Notes: generated by a model from the letters alone, not told the origin. A stretch of 64,000 bases of DNA from an uncultured beta proteobacterium (GCA_963712105.1 CAVQGR010000014.1:39546-103545); one strand, 5' to 3'; shown: positions 36,536-51,354, counted from the first letter of the stretch. A program made the numbers and translations.

Positions 36536-36679
36536 ATGCTGGTCTCCATCTGGTGGGTCTTGGTTGCACTGGTTCTCGGCGGTACCTTCGGCGTTGTGGC
36601 GCTCGGTCTACTTTCGGCCACGGTCGATGAGGACGAAAATGAAGTCCTGAACTACGACATCCCGAATCCGACGCGCTAG
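36536..36679 (+). CDS. Hypothetical 47-aa single-TM protein
   Basis: The ATG at 36536 is preceded by GGGGAG with a 6-nt spacer. The product reads MLVSIWWVLVALVLGGTFGVVALGLLSATVDEDENEVLNYDIPNPTR, one hydrophobic helix plus an acidic tail. No family was recognised. Its stop overlaps the convergent iclR stop within CTAG. Confidence 0.3.
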   Translation: MLVSIWWVLVALVLGGTFGVVALGLLSATVDEDENEVLNYDIPNPTR

Positions 36680-37527
36680 GTCTCGCCGGCGCGGCGGCCG
36701 TGCGGCCAACGGCCGCCCAGGCGCAGCGTGAGTTCCTCCGCGGTGTGGGCGACAAGCGTTCCCAGCTGGCGGATGCGTTCGTCGGGTAGCCGCGATGACG
36801 GACCGGCCAGGGAAATCGCTCCCAGCGCTTCGGCATGCTCGTCGTAGATGGGCGCGGCGACACAGCGGGTGCCCAGCGCATGTTCCTCGTCGTCGAACGA
36901 CCAGCCGCGCTGGCGAATGACGCGAACGGCGGACCACATGGTCTCCGGCGAAGTGATGGTGTTTCCGGTGATCCGCTGCAGGCCCTTTACCTTCAGGATG
37001 GCGTCGATCTGCTCGTCGGGCAGCGCGGCGAAGATCGCCTTGCCCACACCGGAGGCGTGCAGCGGCACACGGCTGCCCAGTTTGACGATGGTGCGCATCA
37101 TCTCCCGGCACTGCACCTGGTCGATGAATACCGCTTCGGTGCCGTCGAGAATGCCCAGGTTGGCTGTTTCGCCCGATTGCTCCATCAAGCGGCGCAGGTA
37201 CGGATGGCTCTGCTCGACGAAATCGCGATTGGCCAGGAAACTCGAGCCGACGGCGAAGGCCTGCAGCCCGATGTACCAGCGGCCCATTTCGCCGCCCTGA
37301 TAGACGTAGCCCATTTTTTCCAGCGTAGCGAGCAGTCGATGTGCGGTCGACGGTGCCAGCGTCACGCGCTGCGCCAGGTCGGTGAGCGTCAGGCCGCCTT
37401 CGGCACGGGCAAGCGCCTCGAGCAGGTTGAGACCGCGTGTCAGGCTCTGTACCTGGGCGGTGGTGGTTCCGGCCTTGCCGGGGGTGCGGCCGCGCTTGGG
37501 CGGGACGGGGGAGGGGCGATTGAGCAT
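36676..37527 (-). CDS. IclR-family transcriptional regulator
   Basis: HTH segment VQSLTRGLNLLEALARAEGGLTLTDLAQRVTLAPSTAHRLLATLEKMGYV plus a C-terminal IclR effector domain. Confidence 0.9.
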   Translation of the reverse strand: MLNRPSPVPPKRGRTPGKAGTTTAQVQSLTRGLNLLEALARAEGGLTLTDLAQRVTLAPSTAHRLLATLEKMGYVYQGGEMGRWYIGLQAFAVGSSFLANRDFVEQSHPYLRRLMEQSGETANLGILDGTEAVFIDQVQCREMMRTIVKLGSRVPLHASGVGKAIFAALPDEQIDAILKVKGLQRITGNTITSPETMWSAVRVIRQRGWSFDDEEHALGTRCVAAPIYDEHAEALGAISLAGPSSRLPDERIRQLGTLVAHTAEELTLRLGGRWPHGRRAGET

Positions 37528-37553
37528 GGGAAGGTGTCGTCATAGGCCGCGCG

Positions 37554-49341: not shown

Positions 49342-49354
49342 GGACGAAAGGCTT

Positions 49355-50587
49355 TCACTGGAGATGGTTGAGCGCCAGGTCGAAGGCGTCGAAGTTGCGC
49401 CAGCGACGCCCGGGCAGCGCCGCGGATGGCCGGTTGGCGAGCAACGGCACGCGCTGCTCCGAAATGCCGCCGTGCGAACGCAACGGAACATCGAGACCGG
49501 ACAGGTCGTGGCGGTCGGGCGTCGTGCCGACCACGGTCAGTCTCTCGGTGACCACGACCAGATCGCCAACGCGATCGGGTGGGAGTTCGAATTCCGCGCA
49601 GGCTTCCTCGCGGGTTTGGACCCGTTCGACGCCCGGAAGGTTCGCGATTCGCGTCGCGGCGTCGGCGCAGCGGGCGGCATCGTCGATGTACACGGTCGCA
49701 TACGAGCCCAGCGCACCGTGATGAACGACATAGGGATCGGTGATCGGCAGTATGACCCGCGTCGTGCCGGCGCCGAACCATTCATCGAGACGCTGCTGCA
49801 GGAAGACGATGTTCGGTCGGCCCAGCGCGTCGGTCTTGGCATTCATGCCGTGATCCGCGGTCAGCACCACCGTCGCGCCCAACGCGTCCAGTTTCGCCAG
49901 ATAGCGGTCGAGCATGGCCGTGAACTCGTTGGCGGCCGGCGTGCCCGGCGCGGCCTTGTGCTGGACGTAATCGGTGGTCGACAGGTACATCACGTCCGGC
50001 CGCTCGCGTTCGAGCAGGGCAACGCCGGCGGCGAATACGAATTCGGACAGCGCCGCGCTGTAGACCGAGGGTACGGGCATGCCGGTGAGCGACAACGCGT
50101 CGGCGATGCCATTGGCCTCGAGCGTCACTTCGGCGGACTTCTCCGACGAAAAGCAGATGCCCTTGAGCTTGTGTCCCAGCAGCGAGCGCAGCTTGTCCTT
50201 GGCCGTGACGACCGCGACCCGCGCGCCCGCGTCGGCCAGTGCGGCGAGGATGGTGCCGGCGCGCAGGTACTTGGCGTCGTTCATCATCACTTCCGCGCCG
50301 GCGTCCGGGTCCCAGAAAAAATTGCCGCAGATGCCATGCACCGAGGGCGGCGCACCGGTCACGATCGACAGGTTGTTCGGATTGGTGAACGAAGGCACGA
50401 CGCAGTCGGCGGTCAGGCAGGTGCCGCGAAGCTTGAGCGAGGCCAGGAATGGCGCCTTGCCGGCCTCGATGGCCTGATTGATGTAGTCGGGCTCGCAACC
50501 ATCGACGCAGACGATGACGACCGGTCGCTGCGGCCAGCGGTAATCCCGCCCATTCACGGTAATCGAGCGGGGTGGGGCGGTGGTCAT
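49355..50587 (-). CDS. phnA: Phosphonoacetate hydrolase (alkaline-phosphatase superfamily)
   Basis: [36 protein letters not shown] and [14 protein letters not shown] match the phosphonoacetate hydrolase family. Its ATG forms an ATGA overlap with the phnR stop. Trimmed from the 531-aa track ORF. Confidence 0.85.
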
Positions 50588-51354
50588 GCCTTTCTCCTGG
50601 TGCGTGGCGGCAGCGCGGCTGCGCGCGCGGTCTGCGTCTGTTGGTGGCGGTGCATGCGCTCGCGGCTGCCGAGCGCATGTTGCAGCAGGGCATGACCGGC
50701 GGCGGCGGCGTCGCCGGCAGCGATCCTGTCCAGAATGTCGTGGTGTTCGCGCGCCGACAGCGGCAGCGTTCCATCCTGCGACAGCGCAGCGCGTCGGTAC
50801 AGGTTCAACTCGTTGACCAGGCGACGATAGGTAAACAGCAGCTTGGCGTTGCCGGCCAGTTCGACCAGGCGATCGTGGAAGGCGACGTTGGCCTGGAAAT
50901 AGCGGTCGACGTCCTTGTCCAGCGCGGCATCGTCCATCTTCTCGACGCATCGGCGCAGTTCACTGATGGCGACGGGCGTCGCGGTTGCGGCGACGCGGCG
51001 ACCGGCGAATTCCTCGAGCAATGCGCGCAGTTCGAAGATGTCGTCGGCCTCGGCCACGCTGATCTGGCGCACGAAAACGCCGCGGTTCTTTTCCAGCCGG
51101 ACCAGGCCCGACGCCTCGAGGGCGCGAAATGCCTCGCGCACCGGTCCACGAGAAACGCCGAGCTGCATGGCGATGTCCGCTTCGGTGATCTTGGCGCCTG
51201 CCGGCAGGTCGCCGGCGAGGATCATCCGTTCCAGTTCGCGCTGCACCAGCGAAGGCAGCGAATTGGATTTCAGCACGGCAATGGTGCCTTCCACCGCTCC
51301 GGGAACAGGTGGCCGCGCCGCCGCTGCCGAGGCGTCTTGATCAGACTTGAGCAT
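50584..51354 (-). CDS. phnR: GntR/FadR-type (FCD domain) regulator, phosphonate-utilisation associated
   Basis: Winged-helix segment [37 protein letters not shown] plus a C-terminal FCD-like helical domain. It is the first gene of the minus-strand phosphonate array. Confidence 0.8.

Follow-up and report, generated by a model that had tools for sequence, protein, structure and literature searches.

A dimethylglycine dehydrogenase-like flavoprotein in bacterial 2-aminoethylphosphonate clusters: a candidate tetrahydrofolate-dependent aminophosphonate N-demethylase

Here we analyse a gene array of an uncultured beta proteobacterium in which a flavoprotein resembling dimethylglycine dehydrogenase (DMGDH) is encoded among genes with which 2-aminoethylphosphonate (AEP) is broken down. 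The array lies in a 64,000-nt stretch of DNA (GCA_963712105.1, CAVQGR010000014.1:39546-103545), in the following called the window. It consists of ten genes on the minus strand in the order phnR, phnA, phnY, Na/Pi-PhoU, HD oxygenase, EamA, DMGDH-like flavoprotein, fdsB, fdsA and iclR, with spacings of -4 (an ATGA overlap), 13, 12, 22, 9, 37, 46, 4 and 26 nt. Strand, coordinates and spacings given in a preliminary description of the ten co-directional genes were reproduced exactly. Comparison with related loci gives strong evidence that the flavoprotein functionally belongs to the phosphonate genes, beyond mere adjacency. It appears to belong to AEP-breakdown clusters as a regular member that has so far gone undescribed, and it probably removes N-methyl groups. 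With moderate confidence we propose that the array is a single PhnR-controlled aminophosphonate cluster of the PhnW/PhnY/PhnA type, in which the flavoprotein would serve as a conserved accessory N-demethylase of N-methyl- and N,N-dimethyl-AEP.

Linkage of the flavoprotein gene to phosphonate genes

Gene identities were assigned from Pfam and NCBIfam profile scores compared with the curated cut-offs. All three enzymes of the hydrolytic AEP route (PhnW, PhnY and PhnA), the AEP transporter and the PhnR-type regulator score above their equivalog cut-offs, which identifies a PhnW/PhnY/PhnA cluster. The ATP-binding cassette (ABC) transporter for AEP and phnW are encoded divergently from the array, as had been claimed before, and PhnS2, PhnT2, PhnU2 and PhnW each exceed the respective cut-off. 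The HD-domain protein is a PhnZ-family HD di-iron oxygenase by its score in model TIGR03276 and stays below the cut-offs of the TmpB and PhnZ1 models. No PhnY*/TmpA-type Fe/2-oxoglutarate hydroxylase partner for it was found among the genes of 36.7-56.7 kb, all of which are otherwise assigned.

The neighbourhood of the flavoprotein clade was surveyed with one genome per species, covering the best 80 of 594 relatives (51-82% identity) with up to 10 kb on either side and two closer relatives that were added. Gene content was scored by tblastn with the window proteins, and the 49 loci for which 8 kb or more of upstream and 3 kb or more of downstream sequence was available were counted as well-flanked. 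Core phn genes are present in 41 of these 49 loci, the EamA gene in 38, iclR in 24 and genes of formate dehydrogenase (FDH) in 4. In 46 of all 82 loci the EamA gene precedes the flavoprotein gene by at most 150 nt, and in relatives without FDH the iclR gene directly follows the flavoprotein gene. Betaine genes were not seen near the flavoprotein gene; its context in the 41 linked loci is AEP catabolism and not choline or betaine metabolism.

The linkage is found in differing gene orders and in several phyla. The array of the window shows the Casimicrobiaceae-type order. Loci of the Rubrivivax/Rhizobacter/Polaromonas type keep phnR-phnA-phnY-Na/Pi-HD-EamA-flavoprotein, followed by different downstream genes and without iclR or the housekeeping flank seen in the closest relatives. 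A Variovorax locus has the order phnS2T2U2-phnW-flavoprotein. Contigs of Methylomirabilota, Rokubacteria and Deferrimicrobiaceae encode PhnA (604 bits), the flavoprotein and PhnW (538 bits) with gaps of 3-20 nt, both Phn proteins being above their cut-offs. These differing arrangements argue against one inherited block. A neighbour-joining tree with human DMGDH as its root places phn-linked members on basal as well as on crown branches and shows the eight unlinked members with good flanks scattered. The co-occurrence of this flavoprotein clade with phosphonate genes, named earlier as a check of the functional link, is thus borne out.

The divergent intergenic region between phnR and phnS2 contains an inverted repeat, AGATTGTCAACAATCT, which we regard as a candidate PhnR operator and which fits the T.GT..AC.A type of GntR/FadR operators. 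The 12-nt core of the repeat, ATTGTCAACAAT, is found exactly once in every one of 32 related loci, each time shortly upstream of phnR, and is kept even where PhnR is only 50-70% identical. No second copy of the palindrome precedes the flavoprotein, FDH or iclR genes. A terminator consensus scan gave 8 sites versus 7.8 expected by chance, all intragenic and none in the gaps of the array, in agreement with the earlier view that the gaps are free of terminators. The single operator-like site and the short gaps are consistent with one PhnR-controlled unit reaching from phnR to iclR.

Two observations on neighbouring genes are added here. In the Methylomirabilota/Rokubacteria-type loci L108-L110, the PhnA-flavoprotein-PhnW genes are followed by genes of a YpfJ-type zinc metallopeptidase and an Opp/Dpp-type peptide ABC transporter, and no PhnY aldehyde dehydrogenase is encoded within 10 kb; the peptide-type transporter hints at phosphonate conjugates. 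Among the unlinked members, L079 has a choline/ethanolamine-kinase-family gene as neighbour, L052 and L060 have genes of a patatin-like lipase and a HAD hydrolase, and L063 has a metallophosphoesterase gene, some of which hint at phospho-head-group metabolism. A gene of the PrpB/PEP-mutase superfamily lies beside the flavoprotein gene in L044, L038 and L049.

The flavoprotein and its proposed reaction

The flavoprotein has the domain order DAO-FAO_M-GCV_T-GCV_T_C, with PF01266, PF16350, PF01571 and PF08669 far above the cut-offs. Its top matches in the PDB are human DMGDH (5L46, 467 bits), rat DMGDH (4P9S, 462 bits) and Arthrobacter dimethylglycine oxidase (DMGO; 1PJ5, 335 bits), and it shares 34.5% identity with human DMGDH. 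The four-domain architecture of these enzymes is retained together with the covalent-FAD His, the catalytic His/Tyr dyad and the folate-site Asp, whose roles have been described for DMGO and DMGDH (PMC5082570, plus general knowledge). Mapped from the DMGO alignment onto the open reading frame (ORF) of the window, DMGO His48, His225, Tyr259 and Asp552 correspond to H99, H282, Y308 and D586, and these four residues are invariant in 18 homologues. The covalent-FAD His stands in the motif GTTWHAAGL, which aligns with the motifs around DMGO His48 and human His91. The invariant GcvT domain for tetrahydrofolate (THF) and the catalytic Asp argue for capture of a one-carbon (C1) unit. What distinguishes the flavoprotein from DMGDH and DMGO is its AEP context in place of a choline/betaine context, and its substrate would presumably be a phosphonate instead of a carboxylate. 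Basic residues after the flavinylation site (QTRATRNATR) were considered as a phosphonate signature and dropped, because one Arg is found clade-wide including unlinked members and the others vary in basal phn-linked lineages.

Homologues of the flavoprotein carry the automatic JGI names "4-methylaminobutanoate oxidase (formaldehyde-forming)" or "sarcosine dehydrogenase". The gamma-N-methylaminobutyrate oxidase MabO of Arthrobacter nicotinovorans, which has a DAO and a folate domain, demethylates an omega-amino acid shaped like N-methyl-AEP (PMC10590968 and general knowledge). The likeness of MabO to the flavoprotein is drawn from its description and from the automatic names of the homologues; MabO acts in nicotine catabolism on a carboxylate substrate.

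The accessory AEP enzymes described so far in the literature searched are PbfA, PbfB, PbfC, PbfD, PbfF and PbfG, which convert relatives of AEP to phosphonoacetaldehyde. PbfB (482 aa), PbfC (415 aa) and PbfD (373-384 aa) have a DAO domain only and convert N-methyl-AEP to phosphonoacetaldehyde and methylamine (PMC10590968, Zangelmi et al. 2023). Like them, the flavoprotein is a PF01266 flavoenzyme encoded inside AEP clusters (phnWX or phnWYA in the case of the Pbf enzymes), and it shares 32% identity with PbfC over 314 aa. Unlike them, it has a folate domain and would cleave the other C-N bond, with AEP and THF-bound C1 as proposed products. Its assignment to PbfB, PbfC or PbfD was rejected, as it has 860 aa (about 810 aa in homologues) and GCV_T domains versus the DAO-only enzymes of 373-482 aa; PbfB, of 482 aa, is moreover PuuB-like by description, the direct sequence comparison being with PbfC. 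The TmpA/TmpB route likewise acts on N-methylated AEP, and TmpB is related to the HD oxygenase of the array (PMC10574752). In that route hydroxylation and C-P cleavage take place with the methyl groups attached and yield glycine betaine, whereas for the window we propose that demethylation comes first and that the C-P bond is then cleaved hydrolytically by PhnA.

A more elaborate set of genes was found in one related locus, L032 (2319-9869, minus strand), whose clade member is encoded divergently from the set. Here phnS2-T2-U2 are followed by a second DAO-FAO_M-GCV_T paralogue (43% identical) and then by a Rieske/ring-hydroxylating oxygenase whose top, full-length match is GbcA. Its score of 347 bits lies below the equivalog cut-off of 670, so the Rieske protein is taken as a GbcA paralogue. 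A GbcB-like reductase was not seen beside the Rieske gene. The set follows the stepwise N-demethylation logic of the ladder formed by GbcAB, DMGDH/DgcAB and sarcosine oxidase/dehydrogenase, which leads from glycine betaine over dimethylglycine and sarcosine to glycine, with a GbcA-like Rieske protein and two DAO-GcvT enzymes, and differs from the betaine ladder in standing behind an AEP ABC transporter, in the paralogous Rieske protein and in the missing adjacent reductase. By this analogy, the L032 set suggests a demethylation ladder from trimethyl- over dimethyl- to monomethyl-AEP.

We propose the following sequence of reactions. N-Methyl- and/or N,N-dimethyl-AEP would enter the cell, with the EamA protein or PhnS2T2U2 as candidate transporters. 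The covalent-FAD, THF-dependent flavoprotein would oxidise the N-methyl group or groups, passing the C1 unit to 5,10-methylene-THF, or releasing formaldehyde without THF, and would set AEP free. From there PhnW would convert AEP to phosphonoacetaldehyde, PhnY the latter to phosphonoacetate, and PhnA this to acetate and phosphate, these being the established functions of the families whose cut-offs are exceeded. The HD oxygenase might separately cleave pre-hydroxylated (R)-1-hydroxy-AEP from the environment, a role of phnZ in such clusters that has also been suggested in PMC10590968. Where FDH is present, it could oxidise formate from the C1 pool. In distant lineages the flavoprotein gene stands directly beside phnW, as would suit a product, AEP, that has yet to be transaminated; pbfD, by contrast, encodes an enzyme giving phosphonoacetaldehyde directly and is often accompanied by phnX alone, without phnW (PMC10590968). 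N-Methyl- or N,N-dimethyl-AEP is a plausible substrate in view of the genetic context, the conserved residues and the chemistry of the family. The demethylation of N-methyl-AEP put forward in the preliminary description has thereby gained circumstantial support from the catalytic and folate-site residues, the PhnW adjacency and the L032 set, from which we infer the substrate.

Full-text literature was searched for DAO-GcvT enzymes linked to phosphonate catabolism and, within its incomplete coverage, none was found.

The formate dehydrogenase cassette and alternative explanations

The fdsB-fdsA pair encodes an FdsA-type catalytic subunit, 61% identical to Azospirillum FdhF, and an FdsB-like NuoE/NuoF-type NAD-binding subunit of 564 aa, whose homologues bear the source annotation "formate dehydrogenase beta subunit"; together they identify an NAD-linked molybdenum/tungsten enzyme of the Fds/FDH1 type. 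We take it to be of the two-subunit FDH1 type of Methylobacterium extorquens, related to FdsGBA of Rhodobacter and Cupriavidus. It shares with FDH1/Fds the FdsA-type catalytic subunit and the NuoE/NuoF-fused beta subunit and differs from them in lying inside a phosphonate cluster instead of a methylotrophy or oxalate context. The accessory genes fdhD/fdsC and fdsD were not found in the array; in a Variovorax homologue of the cassette, fdhD is adjacent.

Between the flavoprotein gene and iclR, fdsB-fdsA is present in the window, L081 (90% identical), L017, L036 and L116, and in L026 the pair follows the flavoprotein gene at a distance of about 3.6 kb. The gap between the flavoprotein gene and fdsB is 17-46 nt in the window, L081 and L116. 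L082, with a flavoprotein of 88% identity, shows full synteny over the stretch between the ABC transporter and lepA and has no FDH; its iclR gene lies 91 nt past the flavoprotein gene. The spacer between them (12434-12524) retains about 23 nt that resemble the 3' end of fdsA (window 37528-37580, and L081), 19 of 23 being identical to L081. This suggests a deletion scar, and loss of FDH rather than gain. The FdsB proteins of phn-cluster loci (64-89% identity) form a loose group apart from oxalate-context FdsB, and their divergence points to an old placement of FDH at the phn site. From these sequence comparisons FDH is a facultative cassette, old at the phn site, often lost and kept by some lineages. 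The preliminary description regarded the array as a fusion of a phosphonate operon with a DMGDH/FDH C1 module; the adjacency is real, and the framing has to be given up, since the flavoprotein is a core member of the clusters and FDH a facultative one.

In other genomes (L084 and L111-L115) the fdsB-fdsA cassette has formate-producing neighbours. It lies beside a GntR regulator gene and the oxalate genes oxc and frc, for oxalyl-CoA decarboxylase and formyl-CoA transferase, in contigs of Casimicrobiaceae and other Burkholderiales. Plasmid p3 of Azospirillum brasilense Sp7 (L084) has an oxalate-type FDH context as well, with an IclR gene after fdhF whose product is 37% identical to that of the window. 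One contig carries the cassette beside formamidase and an AmiS/UreI channel. This company of formate-producing pathways makes a role in the disposal of C1 units from the flavoprotein plausible, so that the earlier idea of C1 oxidation by FDH can be upheld as an optional function, missing from most clusters. The FDH might also be a passenger cassette for general formate metabolism without a tie to phosphonates, and this we regard as a serious possibility, while leaning slightly towards a connection. It would explain the scarcity of the cassette, its absence from the syntenic L082, and the lack, within the cluster, of any gene that turns methylene-THF or formaldehyde into formate. Its position in six genomes, the short gap before fdsB, the divergence of FdsB, the fdsA-like remnant in the L082 spacer, which suggests loss and not gain, and the formate-producing neighbours elsewhere speak against a mere passenger. 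FolD is indeed encoded about 6 kb away from the array, as noted before (57705-58574, score above the cut-off). Its relevance as a C1 link is doubtful, since the gene stands among unrelated genes and is probably a housekeeping one.

Several results weigh against the proposed demethylase cluster as a whole. A single lineage, Casimicrobiaceae and relatives, contributes many of the 41 linked loci; its housekeeping genes nagZ-pdxJ-recO-era-rnc-lepB-lepA are syntenic too, so these loci are not independent evidence. Eight well-flanked members of the clade (L034, L038, L044, L049, L052, L060, L063 and L079) do not lie beside phn genes. FDH occurs in only 4 of 49 well-flanked loci, and genes for the step from methylene-THF or formaldehyde to formate (FolD/PurU, formaldehyde oxidation) were found nowhere inside the cluster. 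The pair of Rieske oxygenase and second paralogue was sought in all other fetched loci and in the window and was absent, being confined to L032. The window copy of the flavoprotein carries a repeat-encoded 50-aa N-terminal insertion, described below. Finally, an AlphaFold2 model from an 18-sequence alignment reached a mean predicted local distance difference test score (pLDDT) of 46 and a predicted template modelling score (pTM) of 0.35, too poor for inspection of the active site.

The flavoprotein could be linked to phosphonates and yet catalyse other chemistry, with N-methylated 1-hydroxy-AEP, N-alkyl aminomethylphosphonates or N-methylated phosphoethanolamine-type head groups as substrates, or with oxidation of the ethyl side as in the Pbf enzymes. 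Context alone cannot fix the substrate, the kinase (L079), lipase and HAD (L052, L060) and metallophosphoesterase (L063) genes beside unlinked members hint at phospho-head-groups, and PbfB, PbfC and PbfD demonstrate that FAD enzymes of such clusters cleave the other C-N bond (PMC10590968). The invariant GcvT/THF domain with its catalytic Asp, the adjacency of PhnW and PhnA, which points to AEP as the product, and the L032 set of a Rieske protein and two paralogues, which matches stepwise N-demethylation, make us consider such chemistry rather unlikely.

It is less probable still, and in our view improbable, that the flavoprotein acts after C-P cleavage, as an ordinary sarcosine/dimethylglycine dehydrogenase on sarcosine or dimethylglycine that the HD oxygenase yields together with phosphate. 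The HD oxygenase gene lies two genes upstream in the window, its family relative TmpB gives glycine betaine from hydroxylated trimethyl-AEP (PMC10574752), the identity of 34.5% to human DMGDH goes along with conservation of all catalytic residues, and some homologues are named sarcosine dehydrogenase. The HD gene is, however, present in only 20 of 42 related loci having phnY and absent from the PhnA-flavoprotein-PhnW clusters of Methylomirabilota and Rokubacteria, the array has no hydroxylase partner, and the flavoprotein gene tracks EamA, PhnA and PhnW and not the HD gene. Simple adjacency of unrelated phosphonate and DMGDH-like/FDH C1 operons, the alternative raised in the preliminary description, could draw on the housekeeping synteny of the closest relatives and is very unlikely for the flavoprotein, because the linkage survives rearranged and with other flanks in distant lineages and other phyla, the gene stands between EamA and iclR also in relatives without FDH, and each locus has one operator-like site.

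Features of the window and significance of the cluster

The features of the window are compiled in Table 1. The listed ORFs of phnT2 and phnU2 are the longest ones; phnT2 probably starts near 52.73 kb, its L082 orthologue having 366 aa, and phnU2 probably near 53.82 kb.

Table 1 Features of the array, the divergent operon and associated elements in the window (cut-off, curated profile cut-off)
Feature	Position	Strand	Evidence and remarks
IclR-family regulator, last gene of the array	36676..37527	-	PF09339 + PF01614; IclR and BhcR equivalog models just below cut-offs
fdsA, molybdopterin catalytic subunit of formate dehydrogenase	37554..40331	-	TIGR01591, 693 bits (cut-off 666)
fdsB-like, NAD-binding diaphorase subunit of soluble formate dehydrogenase	40336..42030	-	NuoE + NuoF fusion: PF01257 + PF01512 + PF10589
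DMGDH-like flavoprotein, 860 aa, proposed THF-dependent aminophosphonate N-demethylase	42077..44659	-	DAO-FAO_M-GCV_T-GCV_T_C
In-frame insertion in the flavoprotein ORF (5' end), two 75-nt REP-like units	44506..44655 (outer limits approximate)	-	exact cores 44512-44564 and 44587-44639
EamA/DMT membrane protein (phn_DUF6-like)	44697..45542	-	PF00892; closest to the phosphonate-associated family TIGR03340, 187 bits (below cut-off of 288)
PhnZ-like HD-domain oxygenase	45552..46118	-	188 aa from ATG at 46118; TIGR03276, 231 bits (cut-off 215)
Na/Pi cotransporter-related protein with PhoU domains	46141..47868	-	PF02690 + PF01895; TIGR00704, 271 bits
phnY, phosphonoacetaldehyde dehydrogenase	47881..49341	-	TIGR03250, 852 bits (cut-off 636)
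phnA, phosphonoacetate hydrolase	49355..50587	-	TIGR02335, 620 bits (cut-off 408)
phnR, GntR/FCD regulator of phosphonate utilisation	50584..51354	-	TIGR03338, 287 bits (cut-off 271.5); ATGA overlap with phnA
Candidate PhnR operator, palindrome AGATTGTCAACAATCT	51380..51395		inverted repeat in phnR/phnS2 divergent intergenic region
phnS2, AEP ABC transporter substrate-binding protein, divergent operon	51579..52613	+	TIGR03261, 509 bits (cut-off 393)
phnT2, AEP ABC transporter ATPase	52574..53827	+	longest ORF; TIGR03265, 506 bits (cut-off 458), match from residue 62
phnU2, AEP ABC transporter permease	53686..55542	+	longest ORF; TIGR03262, 788 bits (cut-off 593)
phnW, 2-aminoethylphosphonate--pyruvate transaminase	55577..56722	+	NF010006, 567 bits (cut-off 296); TIGR02326, 495 bits (cut-off 401)

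The first 150 nt after the start codon of the flavoprotein gene are filled by two tandem 75-nt units with exact cores of 53 nt. Homologues of about 810 aa align from about residue 50 of the 860-aa ORF, and the insertion adds 50 aa; the public gene call (P0361) likewise has 860 aa. A mis-called start, with a true gap of about 190 nt between EamA and the flavoprotein gene, was rejected, because no in-frame alternative exists before the GxGxxG motif and the ATG at 44659 is homologous to the starts in L081 and L082. The L082 gene also begins 37 nt past EamA, and the alignment with L081 extends up to ATGAGC. The repeat resembles repetitive extragenic palindromic (REP) elements in being GC-rich, hairpin-forming and dispersed, with a unit of 75 nt and the core GCGCTCGCCCCCCGGGGGGAGCGGCGC; its 5' end is often (A/C/T)TGAGCGCCGC, mimicking a stop/start junction. 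The 27-nt palindromic core was found in 22 soil or rhizosphere metagenome contigs (L086-L107) at unrelated loci, single or, often, in tandem with a 75-nt period. The 201-nt RNA segment 44500-44700, which contains both units, folds with -107.9 kcal/mol (z = -2.6). The repeat hairpins are thus predicted to place strong RNA structure just inside the flavoprotein gene, although the 37-nt gap in front of it is real and without a terminator.

Related clusters contain further accessory genes. In several relatives, a class-III aminotransferase-fold gene between phnY and the Na/Pi gene encodes PbfA, (R)-1-hydroxy-AEP ammonia-lyase (671 bits, cut-off 525). Other relatives have an NAD-epimerase-family gene, of the same family as the PbfF racemase, between the EamA and flavoprotein genes, and one related locus has an alanine dehydrogenase gene. 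The Na/Pi cotransporter-related protein with its two PhoU domains is retained in most related phn clusters and may act in phosphate export or uptake or in phosphonate transport. To the right of folD, at 58594-63509 on the minus strand, lies a Puu-like set of an aldehyde dehydrogenase, a gamma-glutamyl-GABA-hydrolase-like amidotransferase, an iron-containing alcohol dehydrogenase and a glutamine-synthetase-like ligase. All four are below their equivalog cut-offs, and the set may be a route by which an amine or amino alcohol is gamma-glutamylated. A plasmid search (PLSDB) with the 14.7-kb region of the array gave partial matches to FDH or to phnA/phnY and no record with the entire arrangement.

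The flavoprotein family is abundant in soil metagenomes, with at least 8000 candidates and most matches listed from JGI/ENA metagenome assemblies. Since it is annotated automatically as sarcosine dehydrogenase or methylaminobutanoate oxidase, surveys of phosphonate genes would overlook its role. More tentatively than the role proposed for the window, we suggest a widespread family of THF-dependent aminophosphonate N-demethylases in soil and freshwater bacteria (Burkholderiales, Methylomirabilota, Rokubacteria and others), which in some genomes might form a full ladder from trimethyl-AEP to AEP together with a GbcA-like Rieske protein and a second paralogue, the methyl carbon going to the folate pool or, via a co-located FDH, to CO2 and NADH. 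Which of the natural phosphonates can be used through the common AEP pathways depends on accessory enzymes. A folate-coupled demethylase would return N-methylated AEP to AEP and the methyl carbon to C1 metabolism and would thus link the phosphorus redox cycle to C1 metabolism. The array provides a directly testable enzyme candidate together with a candidate operator/regulator pair. If the proposal is true, N-methylated phosphonates would be sources of C1 units and energy besides being sources of phosphorus and nitrogen.

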